Source: an uncultured Bacilli bacterium (GTDB lineage: Bacteria > Bacillota_I > Bacilli_A > RFN20 > CAG-449). From it: a stretch of DNA of 64,000 nucleotides. The stretch lies in the NCBI GenBank assembly GCA_947632435.1, contig CANRPC010000003.1, forward strand, positions 5,326 through 69,325, given 5' to 3'. Under the pieces are notes generated by a model that was not told the origin of the DNA, did not search any database, and worked only from the letters and a program-made list of their open reading frames with translations. Shown in pieces: positions 18,842 to 37,481 of the stretch. The number at the start of each line of letters is the position of its first letter. Positions within the stretch are counted from its first letter, which is position 1. A program made the translations under genes and the position numbers.

Positions 18842-18857
18842 AGCAATGAGGCTTTTT

Positions 18858-21432: not shown

Positions 21433-23205
21433 ATGAAATTATTTTTTATATCAATTATTTTTTCTTTATTAAGTTTACAAGCGAATTTTAATTATTCTCA
21501 ACCAAAATCTTTAAAAAGTGACGAAGAAAGAACAAATCAAAATCATTTGATTGACGGAGTAGAATTTCGTGATAGCAGTGAACTAATTACAACAAATTTT
21601 CAAAATCAAGAAACGATTGTAGAAAAAGAAGGAAGCAATTATAATATCGTTTCAAAAAATTTAAATACAGGAGTGCTTAATTTTATTGATTTTGATGAAA
21701 CCTCATATTACTATCGTCAGTATGCTTTTGATACTGCTGAAACTAAAAGTAATTTAAGAAAGTCAGAAAAAACAAATAATGTTCAAGAAAGCAATATTCA
21801 AATTATAAGTAATAATAAAGGGGAATCATTTTTATACACAGAAGGATATACTCCTAATTATGAAAGTTCAAATTATGCTGTTAAATCTGGAGCTAGGATA
21901 ATTGGCGATGAGGACAGGAAGCATGTTACTGACACAACAGAATGGCCTTATAGAGCTACTGGATATATTTTAACTCGTTATGATGTTTTAAACAATGAAA
22001 CCGGAAAAATTGATTCTCGATATTATACGGGGACTGCTTTCTTAGAAGGACCTGATTTAATAGTTACGGCTGGCCATTGTGCATATGGCGATGTTACTAC
22101 TTCATATAAAGATGCTAATGACGTAATTCATACAGAATATGAAGATCACTTAAATAATCCAAGATTCCCAGATCAGATTATTTTCTATCCAGCTCAAAAT
22201 GGAGCAAGTTTTAGACCATATGGTGGAATAAAAGTCGAAAGAGTATATTTAGAAAAGAATTACTATACTGATACTTTAAAAGATTGGGCGTGTTGCAAAT
22301 TAGAAAGTCCAATTGGAAATGAAATAGGATGGTATGGTAAAGTAGCGAATTTCTATCAAAAGGATTATCCATTTTATTCATTTGGATATCCAGGAAGTAA
22401 AGATGGAAAAATGTATACAGCCGATGCAAAATTTACAGATTTTGAAAATGATAATGGCTGGTATTATAGAACAAATTTAGATTCTGAAGGTGGACAAAGT
22501 GGTTCACCATATAGAGTTAATATAAATGGTGGCGAATTTATGTGTGGAATCCATACGTATAACGTAGGGAATAGTTATTCTGGTGGTACACGAATCGACG
22601 AATTTATGTTTGCATTTTTGAATAGTTTTGTAGCAAATCATAATGTTATCTACGAAGTCGCATCAATCAAACCAAGTGATTATGGATTTGCCGACGCGTA
22701 TCCTACAGATGATTCAACGAAGGACAATTTCAAAACACATACACTAAGCACTGGTTTTACATTTAGAACAAGAAGATATAGAACTGGTTATATTCAAAGT
22801 GAATACATCGTTATGTCATGTATAAAAACTAACATTACTGAAGCTTTTATTGAATATGAATTTGATGTTCCAGTTTATCGCATTGATGTTGATCTTGCTC
22901 ACTGGCGAGAATATTCTCATGAATGGCTAGATAAAGATAAAGGAATTGCTGAATTACAAGTATGGCATGAACGGTCTTGGTGGAATCCACTTGTTTCAAG
23001 TAGATGGGTTCAAAAATTTGATCTTTTATCTGATGAAACAGCTTTACCTAGAGACAGAACTCAACCAACAACTTATTCAATTGAATTTGATTCTCCTGTA
23101 ACTGGTTTTAGATTTTATTCTAAGATAAACAATCCAGATATTAGTGATAGCAACAGAGGAAGAATCTGTATAGGTAACATGAATATTTATACAAAGGCTG
23201 ATTAA
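21433..23205 (+). CDS. secreted trypsin-like (S1B / glutamyl-endopeptidase-like) serine protease with extra N- and C-terminal domains
   Basis: Signal peptide MKLFFISIIFSLLSLQA. The catalytic His sits in VTAGHC and the catalytic Ser in EGGQSGSP. A C-terminal domain of ~200 aa is unassigned. Confidence 0.75.
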   Translation: MKLFFISIIFSLLSLQANFNYSQPKSLKSDEERTNQNHLIDGVEFRDSSELITTNFQNQETIVEKEGSNYNIVSKNLNTGVLNFIDFDETSYYYRQYAFDTAETKSNLRKSEKTNNVQESNIQIISNNKGESFLYTEGYTPNYESSNYAVKSGARIIGDEDRKHVTDTTEWPYRATGYILTRYDVLNNETGKIDSRYYTGTAFLEGPDLIVTAGHCAYGDVTTSYKDANDVIHTEYEDHLNNPRFPDQIIFYPAQNGASFRPYGGIKVERVYLEKNYYTDTLKDWACCKLESPIGNEIGWYGKVANFYQKDYPFYSFGYPGSKDGKMYTADAKFTDFENDNGWYYRTNLDSEGGQSGSPYRVNINGGEFMCGIHTYNVGNSYSGGTRIDEFMFAFLNSFVANHNVIYEVASIKPSDYGFADAYPTDDSTKDNFKTHTLSTGFTFRTRRYRTGYIQSEYIVMSCIKTNITEAFIEYEFDVPVYRIDVDLAHWREYSHEWLDKDKGIAELQVWHERSWWNPLVSSRWVQKFDLLSDETALPRDRTQPTTYSIEFDSPVTGFRFYSKINNPDISDSNRGRICIGNMNIYTKAD

Positions 23206-23212
23206 TTATTAT

Positions 23213-23249
23213 AAAGACTCACTTGTTAAAAACATGTGAGTCTTTTCTA
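23213..23249 (+). terminator. rho-independent terminator (possibly bidirectional)
   Basis: Perfect 10-bp stem aaagactcac/gtgagtcttt (23213-23222 / 23236-23245) followed by TTTT. It lies between convergent genes. Confidence 0.65.
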
Positions 23250-23386
23250 CTTTTGATAATATTAGTTATTATTTATCCAACAATATTATAATTCATTACT
23301 TTGATTAAATGAGTATTGTTTTTTATAATTGATTGCGATTAAGAAATAATACTTATTAAAATCCAGGCAGATTATCTCAGATTTTT

Positions 23387-24127
23387 TTATATAAAAGTAA
23401 AATTATCTGAAAATACTAAATAATACGTTTTCCTTTGCCGATTATATTGAATCGAAGCATGTAAAGATGTTGTGTTTTCTAAAGCAATTCGGATTGTTTG
23501 AAGCATACGCGTAAAAGTACTTCGATTAATTTCATATTCATCACATATTTCTTCAGCGGTAAATGGCTGCTTATAAAGTAAACGCATAAAACAAGCCAAA
23601 TTTCTTTCTTCACTAGGAAAGAATTCACAGTCAAAAGTTTTAAGTGGCACTGCTTCTTCTTGAGGTTCTTTCATAAAGCAATCTTCTAAAGAATAAGTAA
23701 ATTCATCGACATCAAAATTTAAGCGATTCGCAATTTCTTGATTACTTAAAGAGATTGATCCTCTTCTTGTGCCATTTTCAAAATTGATGTATTGATCTTT
23801 TGTTAATCCTAAGGCTTTCGCGGCCTTTTCAATGGGAATTCTTTTTAACAAGCGATTCGCAGTAATAATGAGATTAAAGTGTCTCAAATCTGGATAATCT
23901 TCGATTAAAGTTTGAAGATATAATTGCTTTAACGTCATTTTAACTTGGATGATTTTAGATTCATCATATAAATCAAGATTACTTCCATCTAAATCAAAAT
24001 TAATGATTTTATAGTTTTTGGTGAAATATCCATAACAAATCGTATTTTCATTTGTGGTAAATATTGTCGCGGTTACTGCATTGCGAACAAGTACTGCTTT
24101 GGTAATGCCTAAGCATACTTTTTGCAT
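23387..24127 (-). CDS. HTH-containing putative regulator
   Basis: Central XRE-like HTH IEKAAKALGLTKDQYINFENG. The C-terminus FTAEEICDEYEINRSTFTRMLQTIR looks like a second HTH. Confidence 0.45.
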   Translation of the reverse strand: MQKVCLGITKAVLVRNAVTATIFTTNENTICYGYFTKNYKIINFDLDGSNLDLYDESKIIQVKMTLKQLYLQTLIEDYPDLRHFNLIITANRLLKRIPIEKAAKALGLTKDQYINFENGTRRGSISLSNQEIANRLNFDVDEFTYSLEDCFMKEPQEEAVPLKTFDCEFFPSEERNLACFMRLLYKQPFTAEEICDEYEINRSTFTRMLQTIRIALENTTSLHASIQYNRQRKTYYLVFSDNFTFI

Positions 24128-24143
24128 TGCTATTTTTCTCCTT

Positions 24144-25972
24144 TTATTTATGCAGTTCGGTTATTTCATTTAAAAATGATGAATGGGATAAGTATTTCAT
24201 TTTTCCATTCATAAAATGTCTTTCGGCAGATGTCAGAAATAATCTTTCTTTTGCTCTTGTTATGCCAACATAAAAGATTCTTCTTTCCTCTTCTTTTTGA
24301 CTAAGAAATTGTGAGGTTCTTGGAAGTATTCCTTCGTTAAGATCAACAAGAATTACCACTTTAAATTCAAGGCCTTTCGCTTGATGAATTGTCATAAGTT
24401 TTACCACATTCAAGCTTTCTTCTTTTTCATCTAAAAGATAAAAATTGTTGAGCCATTCCATCGTAGATTTTTCGATGTCTTGAAGTTGATAGGGAATATT
24501 AGCAATGTACTCTTTAAATTCCAGTAGATGATTTATTTTCTCATTAGCTTTTTTATCTTTGCTAACTTCATGAAAATAGTTCAATTTTTCTAAGATGAAG
24601 TCATAGAAATCAACTGGAATCTTCTCTTTTATTTGCGTTTGTAATTCTTCCATGAGCTGAAGAAAATCTTTTGCTTCTTCTTTATCTTGGAGCAAAGAAT
24701 AATAAGATTTCTGCGTACGGGCTTGTTCATTTTGAAGATTTTTCATAAACTTTTCTGAAAAGAGTTTTTTAGGGTAATTACTCATCATCAAAAAAGCAAT
24801 ATCATCATGAGGATTATGAATAAACTGATAGATATTTAGAATATTTTTTATTTCTCTATAACGGAAAAATGGATAAGAGCCATAAACTTTAAACGGAATA
24901 TGGTTTAATATAAGTTCCTTTTCAAAGGCGTGAGATGACGCATTGTTACGATAAAGAATTGCAATGTCTTCATATTGATAATGATGTTCCAGGCAAAGTT
25001 TAATTAAAGTAGCAGCAAAACGTGCCTCATCTTCAACGGTCTTATAAGGTCGATATTGTATGTGAAAGGCATTGAGAGAATTTGATGTAAACATCTTCTT
25101 ATCAATGCGATTGACGTTATTTTTGATTACTTCATTTGCACATTTTAAAAAATTGCTTCCGTCGAACGATAATTTTCTTCTAAAATGATAGTTTTCGCTT
25201 TAAAATGACGAACAAAGTAATTCATGTTTTCAAAATTCGATCCACGAAATGTATAGATACATTGGTCCTGATCACCGACCATGAAAACTTGTTTGGCGTA
25301 CTTTGAAAGTAGCAATAATATTTCAAATTGAATATTATTGACATCTTGGGCCTCGTCGACGAGGATATATTCAATGTCTTCTGCAACAATCTCTTGAAAA
25401 TCTTTCTTTTGCAAGAGGTCTAGCATGTAGTACTGTAAATCATCAAAATCCATACGGTTACACTTCTTTAATCTCTCTTGATACTTTTTAAAGACCAGTA
25501 AGATTTGTAATTGTTCTTTCAATGAATCAACAATGTAAGGTGTATGGTTTTTAATATCAGAAATACGTTTTTTTATATTTTTATCAAGAATTTGGATTTT
25601 TAATTCTTTAATTATGTCTTTTAAAATCCCTAATCTTTCATCTTCATCGATAATCGCAACCGGATCATCGAATCCAATGTGATTTGCAAAGGTATTGATA
25701 ATACTATAATAATACGAATGAAACGTGGAAATTGTCGAATCAATGAACGAACCGCGAATTTTTGCGATTCTTGTCGTCATCTCTTTAGCAGCTTTATTTG
25801 TAAAAGTAAAAGCATAAATGTTTTTCGCATTTACTTTTTGTTCTAAAAGATGACATAAATGTAAGGTTAAAACTCTGGTTTTCCCTGTTCCTGCGGACGC
25901 GACCACTAGAGTATGTTTTTTAGAAAGAACTGCTTCTTTCTGTCGTTCATTTAAAGAAGTAAGATCAAGCAT
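24144..25972 (-). pseudogene. UvrD/PcrA/Rep-type superfamily-1 helicase, frameshifted in a homopolymer
   Basis: The N-terminal ORF has VVASAGTGKTRVL, VDEAQDVN and ENYRSTEAIF. The C-terminal ORF has TIHQAKGLEFKVVIL and FYVGITRAKERLFL. The downstream frame is open back to ...FLKCANEVIKNNVNRIDKK, the expected continuation. The frames differ by 1 nt at the A6/T4 run 25143-25152. Confidence 0.8.
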
Positions 25973-26226
25973 TACTCTACCTCCAGATGTAAAAAGCGTA
26001 AGAAGTTTTTTATAATGAACGAATTCAGTTCTTCTATTTCTTGATGATTTTCGTATTCATCAATGAGATAGAAAATAAAATCTTTGATAACGATATTCTT
26101 GCTTAAGATAGTCTTTAATAAATCTTCTTGGTGAACTAGTCCACCATAGATGATTTGTGGAAGATTTGGTAAATAGTAATTAAATAACTTACTTTCCAGT
26201 TGGACTTGTAAAATTGTTTTATCCAT
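25972..26226 (-). CDS. small hypothetical protein (84 aa)
   Basis: ORF packed tightly between the Rep_trans and helicase genes. No motif recognised. Confidence 0.4.
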   Translation of the reverse strand: MDKTILQVQLESKLFNYYLPNLPQIIYGGLVHQEDLLKTILSKNIVIKDFIFYLIDEYENHQEIEELNSFIIKNFLRFLHLEVE

Positions 26227-26227
26227 T

Positions 26228-27361
26228 TTAAAAAGGGAGTTCCTCTCTAGCTAAGAATTCTTCTACTTCTTGAAAAATGAGATTTAATTCATTTTTCTTT
26301 AAATGCGGTTGTCCGGTTTCTTTCAGCAGTTTATTTAATTTCAGTAAGCGTTTCGGATCCATTTTAGAAAAGTAATCTTGAATATCGTTTAAAAGATTTA
26401 ATAAAAATTTTTTCATGTCATGAGCGTTATAGATGTAACGGAAAAGGAAATAAAAAGTGAGAATCGGTGTAACCCAGTTTAAGTATCTTTCGAGTGTCGT
26501 TTCATGCACTTTGTATTTAATAATTTGTGATTTTTTTACTTCATGAAGGAACTTTTTCCACCATGAAATTGTTTCTACTTTATATTGGTCTACTTCGGAA
26601 TAAGCATTATCTTCTTTAAAATCAATCATTTCATATAAAAGGCCATAGACATAATTTTGAAAATCGTCTTTATGATCTAATAAAGTAAAACAGACATTAT
26701 ATGCTTTTTCTTTGGTGAATCTCATTTCATAACGTAGCCAATAATCTTGTTCACATTCGTTATTTTTACTTAATTGTTCTTTTTTCTTATCGTAAATAAC
26801 AAGCATTTGTGTAGAAAGGTGACTGCCAAATTGAATCGACCAGCCCTCTTCATCACTGCCGATGAGTTTATAACTTTTCTTTTTAAATGAGGTAGTGTAT
26901 TTTCTGGAATCAAGAGCTTCTTTAATCATGTTTTGGGTTACAATGCTTCCGTCATAATCATCAATCGCAATATCAATTCTAGTGATGTTGGCATTGAGAC
27001 GAATCATTAAGAAAAACAATAAATCATAGAATGTTTTCTCTCCCTGATTTTCAAATTCTCGACATCCTTGACCTCTTAATTCTAAGTGACAAGAAGGCAT
27101 ACCTGTTTTTAATTCCGGGCCGAGTAATCTTAGCTTAATAGAATCGCCAATTTGATATTGGTAGCGGTATCTAGCAGTTGCATACTCATCTTCCGTTACT
27201 TCTTCTAAAGAAAAGCCCATAAATTGAGAAATAAGTAAAACCGTTTCTTCCACAACTTTCTTTTCTAAATCATCATCAAAGTTTTTAAATGGGAAAGTCG
27301 CGGACAAATAATCAATGATGATGTGAATTCCTTCTTTTTTCGTACTTTCTTCTATATTCAT
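26228..27361 (-). CDS. Rep_trans-family rolling-circle replication initiator / relaxase
   Basis: The N-terminus IHIIIDYLSATFPF (the IDYLS.T motif), CHLELRGQGCREFE and ITRIDIAIDD are blocks typical of Rep_trans (the pT181 Rep / Tn916 Orf20 family). Confidence 0.6.
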   Translation of the reverse strand: MNIEESTKKEGIHIIIDYLSATFPFKNFDDDLEKKVVEETVLLISQFMGFSLEEVTEDEYATARYRYQYQIGDSIKLRLLGPELKTGMPSCHLELRGQGCREFENQGEKTFYDLLFFLMIRLNANITRIDIAIDDYDGSIVTQNMIKEALDSRKYTTSFKKKSYKLIGSDEEGWSIQFGSHLSTQMLVIYDKKKEQLSKNNECEQDYWLRYEMRFTKEKAYNVCFTLLDHKDDFQNYVYGLLYEMIDFKEDNAYSEVDQYKVETISWWKKFLHEVKKSQIIKYKVHETTLERYLNWVTPILTFYFLFRYIYNAHDMKKFLLNLLNDIQDYFSKMDPKRLLKLNKLLKETGQPHLKKNELNLIFQEVEEFLAREELPF

Positions 27362-27416
27362 ATTTTTCTGATCCTTTCGTTTAAAAAGCGTACTTTTTCA
27401 CATCTTTAGTCTGTCT

Positions 27417-27445
27417 GACATGGGCTATTAGAGATAGCCCATGTC
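27417..27445. other. perfect 12-bp inverted repeat, candidate nick site (dso/oriT) hairpin
   Basis: gacatgggctat-tagag-atagcccatgtc lies in the 135-nt gap between the ATPase gene and the Rep_trans gene. No T-run follows it on the transcribed strand. Confidence 0.45.
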
Positions 27446-27496
27446 TATCGACATTTTCCTAAAGATTTGTTACAAAAATTGATCGCTTTTATGAAG

Positions 27497-29386
27497 TTAA
27501 ATGATTTCGGTTTCATCATCAGTAGAAATAAAGGGCGATGATCGGCCGTTTAATTTATCGTAAAAGCGAGAATGACATTGGTCTAATTCTTCTCCACTTG
27601 GAGTAAGTGAAGTAAAACATGGTAAATCTTTAAAGGCGTAATTCTTCTTTTCTTGATAAGCATGCGATAAGAATGTTGAATCATATAGTCGATGTCCATC
27701 TATTTCTAAATCGCAGAGATTCAAGTGAAGGGTCTTTTTATCACTCTGTTCACCATCTTTGATTCCGAGCGTTGAACTCATTTTGAAATACCAGTAATGA
27801 TCAAAGAATTTGCAGATTTTTTCTAATAAGTAATTCCATCTTCTTAATAAAGCAAAAAGGAAGGTGTAATCATTTCTTTTAAAGGTAGAAACACTTTGAC
27901 GAGTGGTATTCTTTCTAATGGGTTTACGCTTGGTTTCATATTTTTTGATGAAGCTTCTCAAAAGTTTTCTTAACCCTAAAAACGGTAAGTAATAAAGATA
28001 TAATAAAAATGGATATTTCTTCTTTCTTTTTTCAATGGTTAAAAAGTATTCCGCATTGCCTCTGATTCTTAAGGGAACTTGATCTTTTAGTTGATAGTCA
28101 CAAAAGATTTTGCAATGTCTTTTTAAATCGTGGGAGATTGTTGAAAAGAATGTAGCCGCACCATCCGTTCCAACGATTTTCATATCATCATGGGAATTGT
28201 ATTCTTTATCCAGTTCTGATAAGGAAATGACAATATATTCTTCAAGAGGATATTTATCTGTCTTAAGATTCTTTCGCATATAGTCAAAATTAAAGATTTT
28301 ACTATATGTCATGAAATATGGTGAATAAATCGCATAGTTGGAAATTAAATACGAGGCACGACTTCTTTCAATCTCATAAATAGTTTTATATTCTGGGTAC
28401 TTTGAATTTTGATTAAAACGAACTTCAGCAAAATTTACACTTGGATTTTTGATTTCTTCATCCAGCATGAATTCTTCAAGTTCTTCAATGTAGTTTTCTT
28501 CACTAACCAGAGCTAAAGACATGTTAAGAAGCGTTTTCCCTGTGCCAGGTGGTCCATTAATAAAGGTCGTTTGTGTTAAATCTTCTTTGGCAAATTTCTT
28601 TAAGCGTTCATGATTTTTTCTTAAACGATATTTGGCTTTAGAAAGTGCGCGGAAGAAGATAAAAATAATTAAGAATAAAATAATAATTTCTTTGGGTAAG
28701 ACTTTAATAAGTGGATATATGAGCGTGAAAATATAAGACAAAAGATGAAAAACCAAAAGATAAGTTTCTAAGTGAATTAGACGTATGATATAAACTTCTA
28801 AGAAAATTAGAAACTCAATTAAAGCGAGATACAGATATCCTTTTGCAAGTAAATAAATGAGGATGTGGAAGAGTAAGAATCGCTTCTTTTTCTTTAGGAA
28901 TCGACTTAATTTCGTAAGCCAAGAAAGAATCTTTTGTCTCAAATTTGTCTCAAATCTATGCCATTTCCAATATAATTTTGCACCTTTTGAGTATCGAACG
29001 AGTTCCACTTCTTTTGTAAATGTTTCATGGAAAATGATGAAAAGAATCATCAAAACGGTTAGAAAATAATTGCAAAAATAAATTGTAAAGTCCAAAACAA
29101 GGTTCAAAATTGTGTCAAAAATGTGCGATATTTTCTCAATAAATGAGGAATCTATCGCAAATATGTCCTCAAAAAGTCTCAAAAATGTGTTAGATATTTC
29201 TTGAAGATAAATCTCCGATTGTTCAAAACTAGATGTTTCAAAAAATGCTTGAACATTTTGAAAATCTATCATCGTTTTGGCTCTAATGGTTGCTAGAATA
29301 AAAACATCAGTGCTTTGAAGCACTGTCCAAACACACAAGGCGAAGAACAGTACTTCAAAGATGATGAGCCTTAGTCTTTTAGCCAC
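27497..29386 (-). CDS. polytopic membrane protein fused to a C-terminal P-loop NTPase (possible DNA-translocation / assembly ATPase)
   Basis: About 270 aa of hydrophobic helices, then Walker A FINGPPGTGKTLL and a possible Walker B IVISLSELD. It lies directly upstream of the hairpin and the Rep_trans gene. Confidence 0.55.
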   Translation of the reverse strand: MAKRLRLIIFEVLFFALCVWTVLQSTDVFILATIRAKTMIDFQNVQAFFETSSFEQSEIYLQEISNTFLRLFEDIFAIDSSFIEKISHIFDTILNLVLDFTIYFCNYFLTVLMILFIIFHETFTKEVELVRYSKGAKLYWKWHRFETNLRQKILSWLTKLSRFLKKKKRFLLFHILIYLLAKGYLYLALIEFLIFLEVYIIRLIHLETYLLVFHLLSYIFTLIYPLIKVLPKEIIILFLIIFIFFRALSKAKYRLRKNHERLKKFAKEDLTQTTFINGPPGTGKTLLNMSLALVSEENYIEELEEFMLDEEIKNPSVNFAEVRFNQNSKYPEYKTIYEIERSRASYLISNYAIYSPYFMTYSKIFNFDYMRKNLKTDKYPLEEYIVISLSELDKEYNSHDDMKIVGTDGAATFFSTISHDLKRHCKIFCDYQLKDQVPLRIRGNAEYFLTIEKRKKKYPFLLYLYYLPFLGLRKLLRSFIKKYETKRKPIRKNTTRQSVSTFKRNDYTFLFALLRRWNYLLEKICKFFDHYWYFKMSSTLGIKDGEQSDKKTLHLNLCDLEIDGHRLYDSTFLSHAYQEKKNYAFKDLPCFTSLTPSGEELDQCHSRFYDKLNGRSSPFISTDDETEII

Positions 29387-30915
29387 GACTTAGATTTAGC
29401 AATGACTTTATAAAGAGCGTATACGATGATAACTCCTCCAAGAGTTCCCATGATGATAAGTGGAACTTTTAATGGACTTGTTTTTTTAGTTGTTTCTGAA
29501 GAATCCTCAAAGGGATTTTTACCAAGTTTAGCCACGACTTCTTCGACAAGAGTTGTGTAGGATTTTGTCGCATTTTCAGATGTGGCTGTCACTCCTTCAA
29601 TCGTTACTTCTAAACGTGGTGAAATTGTTGAAGCGTCATAGTAATTGATTTTCCCTGCTAAATATTCACTATTTTCAATTTGTGAATACATCGCTAAACC
29701 TTTCACTCTTTGATCTAAATAATAAGATGTTTCAAGGGTTGCAGCGGATTCGTTAATTTGAATGGAAGAATAACTGCGAGTTTCTAACTTATGCAGATAG
29801 ACTTCTTTATAGTTAATATAATTAGCGGTGACAAAATAAGCATATTCATCCATGTGGATAAGGCGATTGGCATAAAAATGTTTCATGTGGCTCGCAGCTA
29901 GATTATTACTATAATAGTAAATTTCATCAACGTTGACGATTTCGGCATTAAAATCCGTAAAGGAAATGCTTGAACTTGTATTGATTTTTGAAAAATCATA
30001 GATGGCTTTTGTCACGTATTTTCCAACATACCCAAATAAAGTAGTTGTGCTTGAATTAAAGGTACTCGTAAGGTAATACATTCCCCCATATTCATATGTT
30101 TTATTGATTGTCGGATTTTCTACCAGTGCTTCTTGATTAGATACATAGTATAAATCTGGAATTACACAGGTTTTATCATCGTAGTAAGCATTTTGGAAAA
30201 TCGAATCGATATGCTTTTGAGCGAGTAATTTATCCCTTTCTGCACAAACGATATTGATTTTATGATCAAAGATACTTGGATCAAAATAGGATTTTAATGA
30301 CCAAAATGCTGTTGAATTAAAACGCGGCAGAATATAAATGTTTTTTAATTTTGTCGGTAAGGTATTTGCTAGGCGAATTTCATTGGTCAAGAATACAATG
30401 TTTTCTACTTCGGGAAATCTAAAAATATAAGATAAATATGTGTAATCATAAATTAATAGAGTTTTTGCCGAAGTAAATTGCGTGTATGGTTGATTATTGT
30501 TTCGCGTCTCACTTGTTTCATCACTTGCACGTACTGGCCCTAGATAGACCGTTTCCACTGTCGCACAATTGGAGGCTGGTCCTGCTAGAGTTGGTTGCGA
30601 ATATACTCCTCCTGACAATGTTCTTGTATAATGAAGCCCGGTGATATCAAAAGATTCGGTATTTCGATAAATATCAAAATCCGGAAGGCTGATACTTGTC
30701 GGTAACCCTAAACTTTTTAATGACGTCTTAGTTTTATTTCCAGGTACTAAGTAATCTGGAACATTAAGAACTTGATATTTATCTAGAGGGTCTGATACTT
30801 TTTTCACTTCGTGAGAAATAGTGAGATTCGTTGAATTTTGTGTAGGAACATTCTTGGTAACATTACCAAGAAGTAACATCATACATGTCGTAAATAATAA
30901 ATAAAGTTTTTTCAT
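29371..30915 (-). CDS. surface protein: signal peptide + C-terminal TM anchor + basic tail
   Basis: The N-terminus is MKKLYLLFTTCMMLLLGNV. The C-terminus is PLIIMGTLGGVIIVYALYKVIAKSKSWLKD. Confidence 0.5.
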   Translation of the reverse strand: MKKLYLLFTTCMMLLLGNVTKNVPTQNSTNLTISHEVKKVSDPLDKYQVLNVPDYLVPGNKTKTSLKSLGLPTSISLPDFDIYRNTESFDITGLHYTRTLSGGVYSQPTLAGPASNCATVETVYLGPVRASDETSETRNNNQPYTQFTSAKTLLIYDYTYLSYIFRFPEVENIVFLTNEIRLANTLPTKLKNIYILPRFNSTAFWSLKSYFDPSIFDHKINIVCAERDKLLAQKHIDSIFQNAYYDDKTCVIPDLYYVSNQEALVENPTINKTYEYGGMYYLTSTFNSSTTTLFGYVGKYVTKAIYDFSKINTSSSISFTDFNAEIVNVDEIYYYSNNLAASHMKHFYANRLIHMDEYAYFVTANYINYKEVYLHKLETRSYSSIQINESAATLETSYYLDQRVKGLAMYSQIENSEYLAGKINYYDASTISPRLEVTIEGVTATSENATKSYTTLVEEVVAKLGKNPFEDSSETTKKTSPLKVPLIIMGTLGGVIIVYALYKVIAKSKSWLKD

Positions 30916-30974
30916 CGTTTTCTCCTTTCATTGATGAAGAAATGCTTTGAGAATTGCTCCTCAAAGCATGGATT

Positions 30975-31598
30975 TTATTTACAGCATTTTTTAAAGATTT
31001 TCTTAAATAAGAGATAAAGACCATAAAGGATCAAAACAAGAAAAATCGTTCCAGTTACAATTAAAATGGTTTGGGAAACCTTATTTTCTAACATGGAAGA
31101 AAATATCGTCTTTTCTTTTAATTCCTCGATTGGCTTTATTTTTTCGTCATTAGCAATGAGCTTGTTATAGTCTTCAATTGCTTTAATTAAGACCTTTTTA
31201 TTTGTAACTAGTTTTTGTTGATCGCGAGTTAATCCTTCAAAGGCCTTTTTGGCTTCAACAATAGCGTCTCTAGACGTTGTAGATATCTCTCCAAGATTTT
31301 CAATGAAAGCGATGACTTTATCCGCTTCTGCTTGATCTAGATTAGTTTGATTATCTTGAGCAGTTTCTTGAGAATTTAATAGTTTAGGCTTATTTTGATT
31401 TGCTTTTGCTGGGGTTAAATTTTCTACATAGATAATTTCCCCTACTTCGTTTGAATCTTGACTATGATAAACTGCTTGATATGGAGTGACTTCCTTTGCA
31501 TAAGGAACACTGGAATTTAAAGTTGTCGTCATTCCAAGTCCTAATGCTAGAAATGATAATGCAAGAATTAGTTTTGTTTTCATATTTTTTCCTTTCAT
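30975..31598 (-). CDS. surface protein: signal peptide + C-terminal TM anchor + basic tail
   Basis: Signal peptide MKTKLILALSFLALGLGM. The start is ATG 31598 (overlapping the upstream TGA) or ATG 31583 after AAAGGA. The C-terminus is ILIVTGTIFLVLILYGLYLLFKKIFKKCCK. Confidence 0.5.
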   Translation of the reverse strand: MKGKNMKTKLILALSFLALGLGMTTTLNSSVPYAKEVTPYQAVYHSQDSNEVGEIIYVENLTPAKANQNKPKLLNSQETAQDNQTNLDQAEADKVIAFIENLGEISTTSRDAIVEAKKAFEGLTRDQQKLVTNKKVLIKAIEDYNKLIANDEKIKPIEELKEKTIFSSMLENKVSQTILIVTGTIFLVLILYGLYLLFKKIFKKCCK

Positions 31599-33187
31599 TC
31601 TTTTTTTGCTACTTTTTTGATAAGGATGTAGACCTTATAAATGACATAGATTAATAATATTGAGCCAGCAACACCAATCACGACATAGAATGTTGTTTTT
31701 AATTTGGGTGTAGCTGTTGAGATATTATCTTTCACATCTTCCACAGTTTCTTTAAACTGCCAATAAGATGAGTTGACATCCGAGATGACCTTCGGATCAA
31801 AGATAGATAAGGTGTTTCCATCAATACAGTCCATTTGAATTTCACAGTTTAGGACTTGTCCTCGATATAGAAAGTTCATACGTAAAATTTTAAAATTATG
31901 GACATTCGTGTATTTTGATTCATCCGGTCCACCTTTGAAAATATTCCAGCCATCGGCGTCATAATTGAGAAATAATTGGTATTGGTACGTCTTTCCCTCT
32001 TTTTCGTTGGAGCGGAATGTTCCTTTTTTAACTCCTTGATAAGTGGATAGACCTAGAAAGCCACCTGAAGCAGTTTTTGGTGTTAAAGATTTAGCCACAT
32101 CCATACTGCCACTTGCGGCGATAAAGTTGTACCAAGGCTTTTGATCACTTGCTAGAGAGTAGTTGACATCCACGCGATATATATCATCGAGATTTAAGTC
32201 GGTATTGAAGTAAACAGCATGCTCATAGCCACCGAAATTCAAGGAAAAGACCGATTGACATTCAATGTCTGTAATTTCTACATAACAATGCGTCATCGAC
32301 TGGATCATCGCATTCTTTTGATATAAACATGATTCATTAAATTGAAATTGCTTCTGATCATTAGAAACGATTTTATATTCGGTGCCAAGTTCTGTGTCTT
32401 CTTTTCCATACTCCACTCCAAAATAGAAAGGATCGAGATTGGAACTGAAACCAGAAACTTTAAAGATTGTACTTTCTAGTCCTGGTCCGTAAGAGAATAA
32501 TTGATTATCTTGCTTACAGAAGCAAAAACCTGCAATGGGCGTCATATTGAGTTGTAAATTGATTTCAGGATAGCAATCAAATGTTGTCGTTTCAAACAAG
32601 GGGTCTCCGTTTAAATGTTGACATTTTCCCGTGATTTCCTGTTGTTTATAGGTGACATCATTGAGTGTAATTGATTGCAGATTATATCCTTCAATCGGCA
32701 GATATTCACTGCTCCAGATGAAGTTTAACTGCGTTCCATCAAAATACATTCCCACAGCTTGGTTTCTGGATAAAGATTCGATTGGCACTTTCAAGTTTTT
32801 ATTGAAGTTGACCCAGAATTTTTGATCATCTTCATACATAGACATCTTGCTTTTGATTTGTGCCTCGGTGTATCCTTTCCAGAGATTAGATAGTTCTGTA
32901 TATTGCTTGAACTTGTAGTAAGGGATTTGATAATAAGGCGATTTATAGTATTTTAAATGGAATGATGAAAGTGTGCCATTTTCCACAAGTGTTTCTACTT
33001 CGCCGCAGATATCTTCAAATAAGTGATGAGTACCTGTTGTAGGCGCAGCAGCATACTTTATTTCTTCTTTTAATCCCTTAGGAACGTCCATCGGTATGGC
33101 TTTATTAGAACTGTCTGGTGGTTTAAAACTGGTGAGAAAGACCATCGCAAGTGAGGTGATAAGAAAGACAAATTTCTTTCCAAACAT
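31595..33187 (-). CDS. surface protein: signal peptide + C-terminal TM anchor + basic tail
   Basis: The N-terminus is MFGKKFVFLITSLAMVFLTSF. The C-terminus is FYVVIGVAGSILLIYVIYKVYILIKKVAKKE. Confidence 0.5.
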   Translation of the reverse strand: MFGKKFVFLITSLAMVFLTSFKPPDSSNKAIPMDVPKGLKEEIKYAAAPTTGTHHLFEDICGEVETLVENGTLSSFHLKYYKSPYYQIPYYKFKQYTELSNLWKGYTEAQIKSKMSMYEDDQKFWVNFNKNLKVPIESLSRNQAVGMYFDGTQLNFIWSSEYLPIEGYNLQSITLNDVTYKQQEITGKCQHLNGDPLFETTTFDCYPEINLQLNMTPIAGFCFCKQDNQLFSYGPGLESTIFKVSGFSSNLDPFYFGVEYGKEDTELGTEYKIVSNDQKQFQFNESCLYQKNAMIQSMTHCYVEITDIECQSVFSLNFGGYEHAVYFNTDLNLDDIYRVDVNYSLASDQKPWYNFIAASGSMDVAKSLTPKTASGGFLGLSTYQGVKKGTFRSNEKEGKTYQYQLFLNYDADGWNIFKGGPDESKYTNVHNFKILRMNFLYRGQVLNCEIQMDCIDGNTLSIFDPKVISDVNSSYWQFKETVEDVKDNISTATPKLKTTFYVVIGVAGSILLIYVIYKVYILIKKVAKKE

Positions 33188-33198
33188 AGTTTCACCTC

Positions 33199-33672
33199 TT
33201 ACTCTTTTTTCGCTTTTGGTTTTACTTCTGCTTGAAAGTCAATTGGTTCATCAAGGATGAAATCCGGATCTTCTTCAAATTCATATCCTAAATCCATAAA
33301 TTGAAGATTTTTGATTTGAGATGGTGATAAATAACAGGTTCGAGTGAGGTCATCAAGTAATTTCACTCTAACAAAGTAATACTTGTCATCACTATCTCTA
33401 TAACGACCAATGCCTATTTCCGCGGGTACATTGTTAAAGCGGAAGGATTTCTTGGTGTTGATGAGTGAACCTTTTCCTTTGGAGTTTAATAGGTATTGAA
33501 CGTCTCCAAGGGTTAACGCTCTAGTAGGTGTTAATTCTAGATTATTAAAATTTTGTGAAAAGGATTGCTCGGCCTTAATTTTGTTTTCTAACACGACAGT
33601 TAGGTTGAATCTGGGGTCTTGTCCTTTTCTTGTTACTACGGTGAGTAATGCGACTACATTGACTTGTTTCAT
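33199..33672 (-). CDS. hypothetical soluble protein (157 aa)
   Basis: GGAAGGAG RBS. It is the second gene of the long minus-strand operon. No motif recognised; a role as an ssDNA-binding protein is speculation only. Confidence 0.4.
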   Translation of the reverse strand: MKQVNVVALLTVVTRKGQDPRFNLTVVLENKIKAEQSFSQNFNNLELTPTRALTLGDVQYLLNSKGKGSLINTKKSFRFNNVPAEIGIGRYRDSDDKYYFVRVKLLDDLTRTCYLSPSQIKNLQFMDLGYEFEEDPDFILDEPIDFQAEVKPKAKKE

Positions 33673-33772
33673 AAAGTCTCCTTCCTAATAGGACAAAAAG
33701 ACCAAGTGATTCTTTTTTGTTCGTGGATTCCTAAACGCGTTGAACATGAAAAGAATTTCTTGGTCAGAAAGT

Positions 33773-33904
33773 TTAGATCGTTATCTTTCCTTTTAAAATC
33801 TTTCTTAATATGCGATAAAAATCGCTGTACTTTCCCTCAATGGTGATTTTCAAGTCTTTTTGTTTAATGATGATTTTAAAAGTTTCTTGATTTGCTTTTT
33901 GCAT
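33773..33904 (-). CDS. possible small ORF (43 aa) at the head of the operon
   Basis: Below the track cutoff. GGAAGGA RBS precedes ATG 33904. Hand translation gives MQKANQETFKIIIKQKDLKITIEGKYSDFYRILRKILKGKITI. Confidence 0.3.
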   Translation of the reverse strand: MQKANQETFKIIIKQKDLKITIEGKYSDFYRILRKILKGKITI

Positions 33905-33998
33905 GAATCTTTTCCTTCCTATCATTAGTTGTCCTTTCCTAATGACAAACTAAGTATCTAGGTTGGAATGGTGCAGTAGACGCATATAAAAAATAAAA

Positions 33999-34040
33999 AA
34001 GCATTTTTGACAAATGAATTTTCACCTATCAAAAATGCTT
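33999..34040 (-). terminator. hairpin + T-run downstream of the RHS/immunity unit
   Basis: 12-bp perfect arms aagcatttttga / tcaaaaatgctt with an 18-nt loop. TTTTTTATTTTTT follows on the minus strand. Confidence 0.4.
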
Positions 34041-34186
34041 CAGATAATTAATGAATTTATTTAGCAATAAAAATATGTATAGATTTATTGTATCAATTTA
34101 ACTATTAACATTTCAGTAAATTATATATTGTCAAAAGATTATAAAACCCTCAATTTTACTAAATGAATCTAATCAGCCTATTAATC

Positions 34187-34588
34187 TTATAAATTTTTAT
34201 TGCTTTTTCTTTCAAGGATAAAACCTGTAGCCATACTGAATATTAAATACGGAATTATTGTAGCGATAGTTACTATAGTAGCAATTTTTGTTTGTGCTAA
34301 TATAATTAAAACAATATTAGTAATAAATAGCAAAATAAGATAAATCAAACTAATTGTTTGAAACCAAAAACCGAAAATAGTAATTGAATTATTTTTTCCT
34401 TTTGCTTGGCCCTTATATAAAAACCAATACCATTTCTTCTCTAATTTTTTAATTTGCTTATTTGAAAATGTTTTTAATGTTAAACTTTGATAGTGAAATC
34501 CTTTACCACGCCATAATGACATAGGGATACCTAATAAAAGTGCTACTAATAATGTAATTATACATGAGGTAATATCACCAAATTCCAT
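34187..34588 (-). CDS. polytopic membrane protein, putative immunity protein for the RHS toxin
   Basis: AAGGAG RBS precedes ATG 34588, 14 nt after the RHS stop. It has about four hydrophobic helices. Immunity is inferred from position. Confidence 0.5.
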   Translation of the reverse strand: MEFGDITSCIITLLVALLLGIPMSLWRGKGFHYQSLTLKTFSNKQIKKLEKKWYWFLYKGQAKGKNNSITIFGFWFQTISLIYLILLFITNIVLIILAQTKIATIVTIATIIPYLIFSMATGFILERKSNKNL

Positions 34589-34601
34589 TAATTTTATCTC
34601 C

Positions 34602-37481
34602 TTAATTCCACAAAATAGTTGTAATCGCACTATATAATGATGAACCTAATGCAAGCCAGTTCATTGAACCTTGAAATGAACTCCAATATACATTTGCATA
34701 AGCACTAAATAATTTATTCATAGCTTTTGTAAATGCTCCTTGTGCAGAACTCGCACTTTTGTACCCACCATTTGCAAATTTACTTATTACTTTACCAAGA
34801 GAAGATTCAGCCTTTTTTACACTATCTACATTGTAATGAGACTTGTGCCTTGCTCCAGCTCCTCCTTTGTAACTAGCTACTGCTCCAATAATTGTTCCTA
34901 AAACAATTTTTCCTATATCAAGTTCAGAAAAAGATTTACCTTCAATCAATTGAGATCCAGCACTTGAAATAAATCCAGTAAATCCACCAATTGCTGTAGA
35001 AACAGCCCGGCTTAATCCAGAGGCTCCTACTAAACCTGAAATTGCTCCCATTCCTATATCAAGTGCAAATTGTCCCCAATTTAGTTCACCTGAAATAGCA
35101 CTAGAAACTAATGAGATTCCCCCACTTATAGCTGCTCCAGTAAGAGCTCCTGCCAATAATCCTCCAGATAGTACTGTTGCAGCAACTGCTCCAACAACTA
35201 ATACTCCTACAACTAAAGTAGCAAGAACCCAATCCCACCAAGCCATTCCTGATGGATCTACTCTCATCACCGGATTATCACCACAATACATATAAAGATT
35301 TAATCCATTAATTTGACCTCTAGTTTCATCTAAGATGGATAATGTATCAGGTGAAATGAATCTTCCTAACTCTGGATCATAATATCTACTATTTAAGTAA
35401 TATAATTGTGTTTCATCATCAAAGAAATACCCCCTGTATCTAAATGGATTTAGGCTAGCAATTTCGTCTACATCTTGCGTTATGATGTGATTTCCATATC
35501 CATCATAAGCATATCCCCCTACAAAGTTTCCATTGTCATCAAAGATTCCAATAATATCTCCTTGGATATTTCTTTGATATATGTACTCTTTTGAACTGCT
35601 ACCATCATTATAATTGAAGCCAACTAATTTGTTCAAGATATATCGGAATATCATGACTTTATTTTCTTGCTTCATCGCTAGGATTTGACTTCCATTTGTA
35701 ATGAATGTTGTTTCTACTCCATTAACTATCTTCTTTCTTCTAATACCATTTGTATCATATTGATACTCAATCTCATCTCCATTTTGATTAAGAATATATG
35801 TTAAATGATTTTGATTGTTCCATTCAAACTCATCATCTTTATATGTCGTTGGTCTTCCCATTTTATCATACTCTAATGATTTGCCATTAAAGGAAATTAA
35901 GCGGTCTCTCTTTTCACAATCATAAACATATTCATCAACATTTGGAGAGTAGAGATTATCATTAAGAGAATAGTCATATGTTTTCTTTAAAAGAATATTT
36001 CCTGCTTTATCATATTTATAGACAATAGTTTTATTAAGCAATGAATTATCTTCTCTTATTAAACGATTTAAACTATCGTAATGATATCTTGTCTTATCTT
36101 CATCTTGTTCAACTGAGATAATATTACCATTTACATCATACTCATATGTTGATGTTTCAGTTAAATATGTGGTTTGACTACCATTTTGTACTTTTACTTT
36201 AGTAATATCTTCTGCGACTAAATTCAAAGTATTTTCATCTTGTTGTAGATAAGAATACTCATGACAAATATCAACTTTATTAGCATTTAAGTTTTGATGT
36301 TTTACTCTACCTAAGGCATCATAATCAAAACTCATTTCTGCGACTGGTAAGAAACTATCCTCAGAATCATCTCTAACAATTCCTTCTCTTAATTGAATAG
36401 ATTTTAAGCGATTATCTTTATCATAACTATTTTTAGTGTTTAAACGATATTCATCTTCACTTAAGATAACATCGCTATCACTAATGAAACGATGATAAGT
36501 ATCATAATGATCTTCTAAGATAAAAGAAGAAACGCCATTTACTTTCTTTTCTTTTTTAATAACTGTATCCCATTCATCAATTGTATTGATGACTTCTTCT
36601 TTATAAATTTCATTGGTGTCTCGGCTTGTCATTTGAGAAATGACAGATGCCACTTGATCCTTATCGTTATAAGACCACTTAGTCGCCCCAAAAGAATCAT
36701 CACCAGAGTATTTTCTTAATAATTCTTTATCATCTGCATCAAAATAACTTTCTACAAATAATCCATCTAGGCTAGTAGATGTTACATGTTTTCTGCTTCT
36801 ATCAACTTTGACATTTGTGAAAGGATCAGTAAATCCATATGTATAATGATCTTCAAAGGTATTCCATAAAACATCTTCCCCGTTTAGTGATACTTTTGTT
36901 TTTCTACCTTGTCCGTCATATTGATAATCAACTTTTACTCCATGATGAGACAATGAAGTTAATAAGCCATAGTTATAAGTAAAGGATGTAGAGTTATTTA
37001 TTCCCTTCGCTGATGAAGAAACACTAAGCAAATCACCAGTATTTTGATCATATTGATAGCAAGTACTTTCTCCATTTACTCCTCTTACTCTACTTTGAAT
37101 GTTTGTTCCTGGTAAATAAGTAACTTCTTCATTTGGATAATTACCATTTATATCTTTAATTTTTCCTTGTGAAGATACCATATTACCATGTTCATCATAA
37201 TTAGCCTTTTCAACTTGCATTAAAGAAGCATCTTTTTTGTTATAGGCTCTCTTTTCAATACAATTTCCTTTATCATCATAGAAACATTCAATAACATTTT
37301 GCTTACTATCTTCTACATATGTTAATTGATCTTTTGCATCATACTGATAAGTCGTAGTAACTACTTCTCCATAAATATTACTTTCTTCTTTTATTAATGG
37401 AACATCTTTCTCATTAAACTCCAGATACTTAATTGTCGAATAACCATCTTGTTCTTGGATAAGACGTTCTTTATTATCATA
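34602..37481 (-). CDS. RHS/YD-repeat toxin, 5-prime truncated, with Gly-zipper hydrophobic C-terminal toxin domain
   Basis: Many YD repeats (YDxxGN, YDxxxRL). The core end is RYYDPELGRFISPD ... NPVMRVDPSG. The frame is open without a start from 37481 down to the first ATG at 37220, with an in-frame TAG at 37482-37484. No signal peptide or secretion domain is present. Confidence 0.85.
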   Translation of the reverse strand, partial: YDNKERLIQEQDGYSTIKYLEFNEKDVPLIKEESNIYGEVVTTTYQYDAKDQLTYVEDSKQNVIECFYDDKGNCIEKRAYNKKDASLMQVEKANYDEHGNMVSSQGKIKDINGNYPNEEVTYLPGTNIQSRVRGVNGESTCYQYDQNTGDLLSVSSSAKGINNSTSFTYNYGLLTSLSHHGVKVDYQYDGQGRKTKVSLNGEDVLWNTFEDHYTYGFTDPFTNVKVDRSRKHVTSTSLDGLFVESYFDADDKELLRKYSGDDSFGATKWSYNDKDQVASVISQMTSRDTNEIYKEEVINTIDEWDTVIKKEKKVNGVSSFILEDHYDTYHRFISDSDVILSEDEYRLNTKNSYDKDNRLKSIQLREGIVRDDSEDSFLPVAEMSFDYDALGRVKHQNLNANKVDICHEYSYLQQDENTLNLVAEDITKVKVQNGSQTTYLTETSTYEYDVNGNIISVEQDEDKTRYHYDSLNRLIREDNSLLNKTIVYKYDKAGNILLKKTYDYSLNDNLYSPNVDEYVYDCEKRDRLISFNGKSLEYDKMGRPTTYKDDEFEWNNQNHLTYILNQNGDEIEYQYDTNGIRRKKIVNGVETTFITNGSQILAMKQENKVMIFRYILNKLVGFNYNDGSSSKEYIYQRNIQGDIIGIFDDNGNFVGGYAYDGYGNHIITQDVDEIASLNPFRYRGYFFDDETQLYYLNSRYYDPELGRFISPDTLSILDETRGQINGLNLYMYCGDNPVMRVDPSGMAWWDWVLATLVVGVLVVGAVAATVLSGGLLAGALTGAAISGGISLVSSAISGELNWGQFALDIGMGAISGLVGASGLSRAVSTAIGGFTGFISSAGSQLIEGKSFSELDIGKIVLGTIIGAVASYKGGAGARHKSHYNVDSVKKAESSLGKVISKFANGGYKSASSAQGAFTKAMNKLFSAYANVYWSSFQGSMNWLALGSSLYSAITTILWN

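Follow-up and report, generated by a model that had tools for sequence, protein, structure and literature searches.

The window analysed here is a 64,000-nucleotide (nt) stretch of genomic DNA from an uncultured Bacilli bacterium (contig CANRPC010000003.1, positions 5,326 to 69,325 of the forward strand). Its positions 23387-33925 hold a block of 10-11 tightly packed genes, all on the minus strand, and this block forms the conserved core of a self-contained mobile element, about 19 kb long here and about 14 kb in the simplest of its relatives, that is integrated in the genome of a wall-less bacterium of the Acholeplasmatales/Anaeroplasmataceae type. The genes, their order and their common strand are those given by a first-pass annotation made from the letters alone, which was also exact as to the tails of three exported proteins, each of which follows a hydrophobic segment. 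Listed in the order of the genes along the minus strand, the features on which the argument turns are the following (aa, amino acids; TM, transmembrane; ORF, open reading frame):

33199 to 33672, minus strand: soluble protein of 157 aa whose C-terminal region is acidic (DEPIDF), in the position of the single-stranded DNA (ssDNA)-binding gene of inoviruses
31595 to 33187, minus strand: 530-aa exported protein with a signal peptide, a C-terminal TM helix and the tail KKVAKKE (hydropathy)
30975 to 31598, minus strand: exported protein of 207 aa that ends in a TM helix followed by the tail KKIFKKCCK, confined to the sub-clade of the window
29371 to 30915, minus strand: exported protein of 514 aa that ends in a TM helix followed by the tail KSKSWLKD
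27497 to 29386, minus strand: 629-aa membrane ATPase, a polytopic helical N-terminal domain (about residues 1-255) followed by a P-loop domain
27412 to 27453, minus strand: hairpin of the double-strand origin (nick site), GACATGGGCTAT-CTCTA-ATAGCCCATGTC at 27417-27445, with an outer TGTC/GACA stem
26228 to 27361, minus strand: Rep_trans initiator of 377 aa, Rol_Rep_N plus Rep_trans (Pfam, 4.4e-29)
25972 to 26226, minus strand: 84-aa protein, translationally coupled between Rep and helicase and conserved in position
24144 to 25972, minus strand: UvrD/PcrA-type superfamily 1 (SF1) helicase, with Pfam UvrD-helicase and UvrD_C in two separate ORFs

The block is a discrete unit, beyond chance, because positions 23384-33996 match a contig from another sample (L052; loci and contigs that carry relatives are numbered in this way) at 95.4% identity over 10,615 bases (blastn) in other surroundings, with unrelated DNA on the left and other genes on the right, and because the order of a conserved core recurs in dozens of loci. 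In that core a 157-aa-like and a 530-aa-like protein are followed by variable exported proteins (one or two), then by the ATPase and Rep_trans, and finally by a small protein (about 85 aa) and the helicase. The G+C content is 0.30-0.37 within the block as against 0.18-0.22 in the distant flanks, so that the block is G+C-richer, as had been claimed, when set against the latter; the immediate flanks (10-23 kb and 34-41 kb) are likewise richer than the distant ones. Searches of Pfam, PHROGs and NCBIfam found no VirB4, VirD4, cell-wall hydrolase, capsid protein or terminase in the block, which bears out the earlier statement, nor any in its flanks. Other than Rep, the helicase and a 246-aa protein at the end of the block, six block proteins are without a match in Pfam, and PHROGs and NCBIfam add none.

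No protein of the element is better conserved than the membrane ATPase, in which 90 residues are invariant across 33 sequences. Hydropathy places five strong hydrophobic segments ahead of the Walker A motif GPPGTGKT (residues 278-285), which is followed by a Walker-B-like ISLSE (E391), by H419 and by D430-x-Q432. When a sequence family was sought in Pfam, PHROGs, NCBIfam and the PDB (phmmer and hmmsearch), only P-loop-level noise was returned, and Pfam found no domains in ten distant relatives of the protein. One of the hits, P0260, proved to be a tape-measure protein and was discarded as due to helical bias. A first AlphaFold model, built from 33 close sequences, was also set aside (predicted local distance difference test, pLDDT, below 50 in the ATPase domain), whereas an AlphaFold2 model built from an alignment of 58 sequences, including distant relatives of 720-790 aa, reached a pLDDT of 90.6. 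In a Foldseek search of BFVD, a collection of predicted viral structures, the second-ranked match of this model was the 37.2-kDa protein of Acholeplasma phage L2 (P42538, the product of ORF3; E 1.8e-5, probability 1.0), and inovirus Zot proteins took ranks 3, 4, 6 and 20 (E 5e-5 to 4e-3); the protein at rank 1 is unnamed. Matches in the PDB were weaker (E 3e-3 or worse) and comprised DnaB-like and AAA+ proteins, STIV2 B204 and the N-terminal domain of Zot (2r2a), the last having the highest target TM-score of that search (0.49). FtsK, TrwB, VirD4 and VirB4 were all absent from the top 50 of the PDB matches, and Pfam, NCBIfam, PDB sequence searches and Foldseek gave no link between the ATPase and FtsK_SpoIIIE, TraG/VirD4, VirB4 or TcpA. 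A comparison with FtsK on one side and Zot/pI on the other, as the first-pass annotation had proposed, therefore names L2 ORF3 and Zot as the best viral fold matches. The same annotation was prepared to give up its readings should the ATPase come from a family that does not handle DNA, and this is not the case.

Profile comparisons were made with hhalign. The ATPase core aligned with the L2 ORF3 family at E 4.7e-5 to 1e-4 (probability 57-68%) and with a gut inovirus Zot at E 1.1e-4; the alignment with L2 ORF3 is colinear through Walker A, Walker B (hhhh[S/Q/D]E), the invariant His and the D-x-Q strand. The L2 ORF3 family is, in turn, colinear with pI/Zot profiles over 117-135 columns (E 8e-4 to 2e-3). 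It may be recorded separately that L2 ORF3 (2278-3216 of phage L2, L006) shares Walker A, Walker B (LILDEF / LVLDEC) and RH.G..D...Q, in the same order, with M13 pI and a gut inovirus Zot (E 8e-4 to 5e-3). By blastp the match of the ATPase to L2 ORF3 is limited to the P-loop, and no other window protein matched L2 directly. The Pfam family PF05707 (Zot) matched neither the window ATPase, nor 57 of its relatives, nor the L2 ORF3 family, even at relaxed E-values, and PHROGs likewise gave nothing. Moreover, the topology of the protein is reversed with respect to pI: the ATPase domain comes after a stretch of polytopic helices of about 255 residues, in place of an N-terminal ATPase domain followed by a single TM helix. 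Judging from the predicted fold and the weak profile matches, the ATPase is probably a divergent member of the group formed by pI/Zot and L2 ORF3, with an unusual N-terminal polytopic domain.

Directly beside the ATPase gene lies a replication module in which these features of a pT181-type replicon are present: a Rep_trans protein with its catalytic Tyr, a nick hairpin of the IR-II type and a helicase of the PcrA type. Rep is homologous to a solved Rep of the pT181 family (PDB 4CIJ; E 2e-18), its catalytic-Tyr motif, IYDKK, being aligned to FYEK, and over its full length to the Rep of the inovirus Dulem virus 68 (PP511664; E 1.3e-26); the best matches in the phage database are small gut inoviruses. 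The nick hairpin (GGCTAT-CTCTA-ATAGCC) is placed between the stop codon of the ATPase gene and the start of rep, and it is found at the same position in 22 relatives, where the stems vary yet still pair and the core CTAAT-AGCC is invariant. A formal count of covarying pairs was replaced by a shuffle test, because differences in loop length shift the register of the alignment, and the observed score was reached in 1 of 4400 shuffles. The core of the hairpin is also that of IR-II of pT181 (GGCTA..CTAATAGCC), the plasmid carrying GGCTACTCTAATAGCC. The helicase loaded at a nick of the pT181 type is PcrA. Reps of the pT181 family nick in the loop of such a hairpin (ICRII), and the ssDNA thereby exposed loads helicase and polymerase (PMC5775427). 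Since Rep is homologous to these proteins and the pT181-like hairpin is conserved, rolling-circle replication from the predicted site, or nicking there for transfer, is well supported.

The helicase is of the SF1 type, as first described, but not a single intact gene: it is split into ORFs of 275 aa and 316 aa by a 2-nt insertion in a run of T (25151-25152; TTTTTT in the window and TTTT in L052, whose product is an intact protein of 608 aa). In relatives the helicase is intact, with 600-620 aa, and the insertion is either a true inactivation or a homopolymer sequencing error. The 84-aa protein, judged by its place between the two genes, is possibly an accessory factor of the helicase or of Rep.

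Upstream of the ATPase gene, the 157-aa protein is conserved in seven loci at E<1e-5; it has no similarity in Pfam or the PDB, and its family profile gave no significant match to M13 gV or to a Dulem virus protein. An equation with ORF12 of L2, which has the same length, was rejected, as ORF12 has four TM segments and the soluble 157-aa protein has none. Among the exported proteins, the 530-aa protein is the best conserved, with homologues in 25 loci at 30-58% identity; it matched no family in Pfam or PHROGs and no phage by tblastn, and it is a candidate for a virion spike or adsorption protein. The position of the 514-aa protein is variable and is taken in relatives by other exported proteins of 270-1200 aa. 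Comparison of the profiles of the exported-protein families with ORFs 1, 2, 4, 12, 13 and 14 of L2 (hhalign) was not significant and aligned nothing past the signal peptides.

Most relatives also have a conserved hydrophobic protein of 50-62 aa with a basic tail, encoded between the 157-aa-like and 530-aa-like genes, that is, in the position of the coat gene of inoviruses; its profile gave no significant match to pVIII or pVI. The gene is absent from the window, where there is no free-standing ORF of this kind and the profile of the relatives finds nothing, and it is also missing from L052 and L004. The tail of the 530-aa protein (31595-31640, ..IKKVAKKE) is almost identical to those on the 57-aa hydrophobic proteins that relatives encode (..IKKVAKEE and ..KKAAKEE; compared at L025 2555-2728 and L010 4748-4921), and the common tail may be a membrane-proximal assembly signal.

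Homologues of the ATPase number more than 200, at 47-96% identity, and all those with names are annotated as hypothetical protein; in a library of 1.84 billion representatives they form 166 clusters at 50% identity. The named hosts are all wall-less Acholeplasmatales/Anaeroplasmataceae, the group in which the known budding phages also live. Many copies come from metagenome-assembled genomes (MAGs) of gut and rumen, several of which have two or three, and complete copies are present in the culture-collection strains Haploplasma modicum ATCC 29102 and Anaeroplasma bactoclasticum ATCC 27112; a metagenome scan gave 44 further loci. The 157-aa-like gene, the 530-aa-like gene and the ATPase gene stay in strict synteny beside the replication origin even though the ATPases share only about 45-60% identity. 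No type IV secretion system (T4SS), capsid, terminase or tail genes were found in the relatives' loci examined, and the homologous operons do not lie within T4SS or tailed-phage contexts; had they always done so, the first-pass annotation would have counted this against its readings.

Several relatives bear on the extent and mobility of the unit. L058 is a contig of 13.9 kb that runs from the small ORFs to a cI-like repressor and a single serine recombinase. Downstream of the operon in H. modicum lie two tyrosine integrases and, past them, uvrB, which marks that boundary, and we estimate the unit there at about 14 kb. The integrases are interchangeable across the family, being either of the serine or of the tyrosine type. 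In L040 (1-14028), a variant seen in 8 samples, a 159-aa gene, genes for exported proteins, the small hydrophobic gene and that of the ATPase are kept, and the place of Rep and helicase after the ATPase is taken by a Schlafen/AlbA_2 gene, which lies on the opposite strand, and by a tyrosine integrase. In L035-L037, which include the complete 2.0-Mb MAG chromosome CP091735, the ATPase is broken into ORFs of 72-308 aa, and these copies appear to be decaying elements. A circular form, for which the first-pass annotation had proposed to look, was seen in a distant member: L038, a contig of 14,631 bp, has a 30-nt terminal overlap, taken to be k-1 of the assembler, and an ORF across the junction, and is the sole circular one among about 95 contigs tested. 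Its ATPase has 764 aa and matches the family with an hhalign probability of 97.9%. L038 also encodes, on one strand, a methylase, Rep_trans, a tyrosine integrase and a number of membrane proteins, but only the ATPase and Rep are detectably shared with the close family. Scans of IMG/VR and of genomes with the distant ATPase gave no matches.

In the window, the element runs from 33996 to at least the tandem serine recombinases at 14659-17803, about 19 kb. The other features along it are the following:

33996 to 34041, minus strand: left edge of the block and terminator (the blastn match to L052 ends at 33996; terminator scan)
33773 to 33925, minus strand: 50-aa ORF, net charge +10, very basic and non-hydrophobic; 43 aa if it starts at the internal ATG at 33904
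30942 to 30969, no strand assigned: hairpin between the 207-aa and 514-aa genes, a perfect 12-bp stem without a following T run
23387 to 24127, minus strand: 246-aa protein with weak helix-turn-helix (HTH) matches (Pfam), the final gene of the conserved block
18842 to 23374, plus strand: cargo, inserted relative to L001
18467 to 18841, plus strand: 124-aa repressor-like HTH protein of the Cro/CI type, on the strand opposite to the block and conserved beside the recombinase in L001 and L058
18048 to 18305 (approximate, mapped from L001), minus strand: small ORF like the SymE toxin
14659 to 17803, minus strand: two tandem large serine recombinases of 563 aa and 502 aa (Pfam Resolvase and Recombinase), colinear with L001

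The 50-aa protein has homologues in L052 (100% identity) and L004. In L001 the block joins directly a stretch colinear with window 18841-15859 (the Cro/CI-type protein, the SymE-like ORF and a large serine recombinase), and 18842-23374 is for this reason an inserted cargo. It encodes a protein of the metallo-beta-lactamase fold, a sigma-70-like factor, a 344-aa protein that is possibly an anti-sigma factor, and a secreted trypsin-like protein of 600 aa; L052 has a different cargo cassette at this site. The large serine recombinases are presumed to provide the integration and excision functions of the element. A search for direct or inverted repeats that could be attachment (att) sites gave only AT-rich pairs at chance level, and the end of the element past 14659 was not located.

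The neighbouring DNA may be described briefly. Beyond the recombinases, the minus strand at 9706-14527 encodes, in a G+C-richer stretch, a DUF5677 protein, an RNase III-like protein with a dsRNA-binding motif, a 345-aa protein and an AAA_21 ATPase, genes that look defence-like; in L002 an AAA_21 gene lies within the element. On the other side, the intrinsic terminator at 33998-34041, with a stem of 20 bp, belongs to unrelated RHS/immunity genes upstream, and the block begins right after it. The RHS/YD-repeat protein (872 aa; 34187-37220, minus strand) has a C-terminal region that is Gly/Ala-rich and hydrophobic and is overlapped by a 147-aa multi-TM ORF; together they look like a polymorphic toxin/immunity pair, outside the block and beyond a strong terminator. 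At 37449-38105 (plus strand) a small serine recombinase of the resolvase type (218 aa) adjoins a truncated NMT1-like gene, and the G+C-richer stretch to about 41 kb that contains it may be a second island. Farther on, the minus strand at 44640-48589 and 53558-62424 has repeated sets of 100-aa and 215-aa ORFs with pairs of ORFs of about 645 aa and about 680 aa, the pair at 44640-48589 having ABC-type ATPase domains, which suggests tandem paralogous transporter operons.

We lean, with modest confidence, towards the view that the element is a provirus, and that the viruses to which it belongs are temperate and non-lytic, exit through the membrane and form an undescribed family related to plasmavirus L2 and to the inoviruses. 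In the cycle that we propose, the large serine recombinases would excise a circle, a form known from the distant member L038 alone. Rep_trans would nick the pT181-type hairpin just upstream of its own gene and, with the PcrA-like helicase and the 84-aa partner, drive rolling-circle replication, an activity that we infer from the observed homologies, catalytic motif and conserved origin. The DNA, maybe single-stranded and coated by the 157-aa protein, would be passed to the polytopic membrane ATPase encoded directly upstream of the origin; here it is the fold of the ATPase domain, like that of L2 ORF3 and pI/Zot, that is observed, and the hand-over that we infer. The genome would then leave with the C-terminally anchored exported proteins as the surface proteins of the particle, the 530-aa protein being the conserved one and the other two variable, and it would do so without lysis, whether through budding, the route of L2 and L172, or through the kind of extrusion known from inoviruses. 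An enveloped pleomorphic particle is a possibility that we hold tentatively, and a filament or rod is only slightly less likely. An envelope is favoured because the small hydrophobic protein is absent here and because of the link to L2, while a filament, or an internal membrane protein, is favoured because most relatives have a small protein in the coat position.

Several points weigh against a viral nature of the element. The link to L2 ORF3 and Zot consists of one predicted structure and weak profile scores and is unseen by Pfam and PHROGs; P-loop domains are prone to shallow fold matches, and AAA+, DnaB-like and FtsK-HerA packaging ATPases are only 1-2 orders of magnitude worse in Foldseek. 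The exported proteins and the 157-aa protein are without detectable homology to proteins of L2 or of inoviruses, and the window copy has no small hydrophobic gene and a broken helicase. L2 itself has no Rep and no helicase and uses bidirectional theta replication from DnaA-box origins. For the close family, no particle, free DNA or excised form has been observed and no contig examined is circular, and the family was not found in IMG/VR (scan with the family alignment), INPHARED or PLSDB (tblastn of the ATPase). Finally, the order ATPase, origin, Rep_trans is also that of elements of the Tn916/ICEBs1 type.

Whatever the family does, the copy in the window might be an inactive remnant, which we regard as possible but on the doubtful side. 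Its helicase is split by the 2-nt insertion, it lacks the small hydrophobic gene of most relatives, and a 4.5-kb cargo insertion parts the block from the repressor/recombinase region. However, its other genes are intact and 95% identical to those of L052, in which the helicase is whole, the insertion falls in a homopolymer run and is possibly a sequencing error, and the whole sub-clade (L052 and L004) has the 207-aa protein instead of the small gene, which looks like a trait of the lineage rather than decay.

As to the family, the element could instead be a minimal conjugative or mobilisable integrative element of wall-less cells, the other of the two readings offered by the first-pass annotation, in which Rep_trans would be a relaxase of the MOBT type acting at the hairpin as oriT, the helicase would unwind the DNA, the membrane ATPase would serve as coupling protein or DNA pump, and the three surface proteins would mediate adhesion or fusion, no wall-spanning T4SS being needed. 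The succession of ATPase, hairpin and Rep_trans does resemble that of Tn916 and ICEBs1, both of them PcrA-dependent. Integrases and a cI-like repressor are found in integrative and conjugative elements (ICEs) too, from which a circle such as L038 would be equally expected; cargo and defence-like genes are carried, no capsid or other viral hallmark gene is present, and the family is absent from virus collections. What tells against conjugation is first of all the ATPase, which matches neither FtsK_SpoIIIE nor TraG/VirD4 nor VirB4 and has viral assembly ATPases as its best fold matches. VirB4 is absent, a protein that even the ICEs of mycoplasmas are known to retain. Moreover, Rep has the Rol_Rep_N domain of plasmid and phage initiators and, in the phage database, inovirus Reps as its closest relatives, and the colinearity with an inovirus extends beyond the origin to the whole structural block. 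We consider a conjugative nature unlikely. Still less probable is an integrative, rolling-circle plasmid-like element without export machinery, spread vertically or by hitch-hiking, in which the ATPase and the exported proteins would have an auxiliary role at the membrane to the benefit of element or host, for instance in exclusion, in varying the surface or in defence: Rep, helicase and origin do form a pT181-type replicon, the exported proteins are highly variable among relatives, L040 keeps the membrane module without Rep and L035-L037 are degenerate, but the 157-aa-like, 530-aa-like and ATPase genes are strictly syntenic beside the origin, the ATPase is at once the most conserved protein and one with the fold of a virion-assembly ATPase, and multiple copies per genome with interchangeable integrases point to active horizontal spread.

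Few viruses of wall-less bacteria are known. The family described here combines a membrane ATPase of the L2/pI type with a Rep and an origin of the inovirus type in a unit of about 14 kb, is widespread in Acholeplasmatales of gut and rumen, and is invisible to Pfam, PHROGs, IMG/VR, INPHARED and PLSDB, none of the four profile libraries searched containing it. In the literature we found no report of the link between L2 ORF3 and Zot or of this family, although our coverage is incomplete and an earlier description is possible. Through the predicted fold of its export ATPase, the family probably ties L2, an orphan among plasmaviruses, to the filamentous phages, the first link in structure between them. 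If the element is viral, the gap between two groups of viruses would be filled, with a hint as to how the assembly machine of filamentous phages may have been adapted to cells without a wall. If it is conjugative, it would represent a DNA transfer system free of a T4SS, which would be at least as unusual. The family can be tested directly, as two culture-collection strains carry complete copies.

Set beside known systems, the element resembles each in part. In the archaeal alphapleolipoviruses a Rep for rolling-circle replication goes together with a conserved NTPase and a spike anchored at its C-terminus; the likeness is one of design only, and no pleolipovirus protein was found by name among the fold matches. 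Tn916 (orf21-oriT-orf20) and ICEBs1 (conQ-oriT-nicK) have a membrane ATPase, a nick site and a nickase of the Rep_trans family in this layout, use PcrA, and integrate and excise; the layout of the element in the window resembles theirs. However, the element has no coupling protein of the FtsK/TcpA type, no VirB4, no VirB6-like protein and no hydrolase, and the fold of its ATPase points to Zot and L2. For the conjugative reading of the first-pass annotation, gene order gives some support and the affinities of the ATPase none. The Rep_trans protein beside the nick hairpin might be of the MOBT kind; its N-terminal domain is the plasmid-type Rol_Rep_N, and its closest relatives in the phage database are inovirus Reps. 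Plasmids of the pT181 family (RepC/RepD) depend on a PcrA-type helicase and are like the element in the two domains of Rep, the Tyr motif and the core of the nick hairpin; in contrast, their origin lies inside rep and not upstream of it, whereas here the helicase is element-encoded and the replicon sits in an integrating element of at least 14 kb with a membrane module.

The inoviruses are closer. In Dulem virus 68 small proteins come first, then a membrane protein of 512 aa, a protein of 85 aa and ZOT, and after an intergenic region Rep_trans, which is the order found here, and the element has, likewise in the same order, a gene in the position of that for the ssDNA-binding protein, the small hydrophobic gene (in most relatives), a large exported protein and the ATPase, together with a Rep_trans initiator and its origin. 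The pI/Zot fold of the ATPase domain is supported at the level of fold and, weakly, of profiles. The element differs from inoviruses in the size of the unit (14-19 kb as against 5.7 kb in Dulem virus 68 and 6.4 kb in M13), in a PcrA-like helicase of its own and in the number of large exported proteins (two or three). The Inoviridae as defined do not include it, because there is no match to Pfam Zot, because the topology of the ATPase is reversed (an N-terminal polytopic domain as against a single C-terminal TM helix), because the copy in the window has no small coat-like gene, and because the closest characterised relative of the ATPase belongs to the enveloped, budding L2. The inovirus/plectrovirus-like extrusion module with an N-terminal TM domain in its ATPase, as suggested by the first-pass annotation, was nonetheless the closer of its two readings: the Zot/L2 fold, the homology of Rep and the colinear order all agree with it.

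L2 (Plasmaviridae; L13696) shares with the element a host group of wall-less Acholeplasmatales, a temperate, integrating genome of about 12 kb with the genes on one strand, and a P-loop ATPase, ORF3, that follows a hydrophobic N-terminal region. ORF3 has only 312 aa, as against 629 aa here with a large polytopic domain, and the integrase of L2 is a tyrosine integrase in place of the serine recombinases of the window. In L2 and three L2-like proviruses the order is ORF12 (about 160 aa), ORF13 (large, exported), ORF14 (about 230 aa, exported), ORF1 (a large membrane protein), ORF2, ORF3, ORF4 and integrase, which parallels the 157-530-207-514-ATPase order of the window. ORF13 and ORF14 have, like the exported proteins of the window, a signal peptide, a C-terminal TM helix and a basic tail, but for ORF13, ORF14, ORF1 and ORF12 alike there is no detectable homology to the proteins of the window, so that the resemblance is one of topology. 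The Plasmaviridae have been described as unrelated to any other virus and as a candidate for a realm of their own (PMC10848233); L2 is the only classified plasmavirus, and according to reviews up to 2024 it shares no genes with other viruses except the integrase.

Another phage of Acholeplasma, L172, is enveloped and non-lytic and has a circular ssDNA genome of 14 kb, and the enveloped phage M1 was isolated from A. modicum (PMC13375369). A genome and particle such as those of L172 are what a rolling-circle element of roughly this length with membrane-anchored proteins would be expected to yield. The present family fits the record of L172, which has never been sequenced, in the size of its unit (about 14 kb), in its Rep for rolling-circle replication and in its hosts; the likeness is one of design and suggestive only. 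It is conceivable, if speculative, that the family provides the sequence of a mycoplasma virus of the L172 type, enveloped and non-lytic and with a circular ssDNA genome of about 14 kb, and perhaps of M1 too, with an ATPase that bridges L2 and pI/Zot. In that event, the Plasmaviridae would gain their first evolutionary connection, and it would lead to the rolling-circle filamentous phages.

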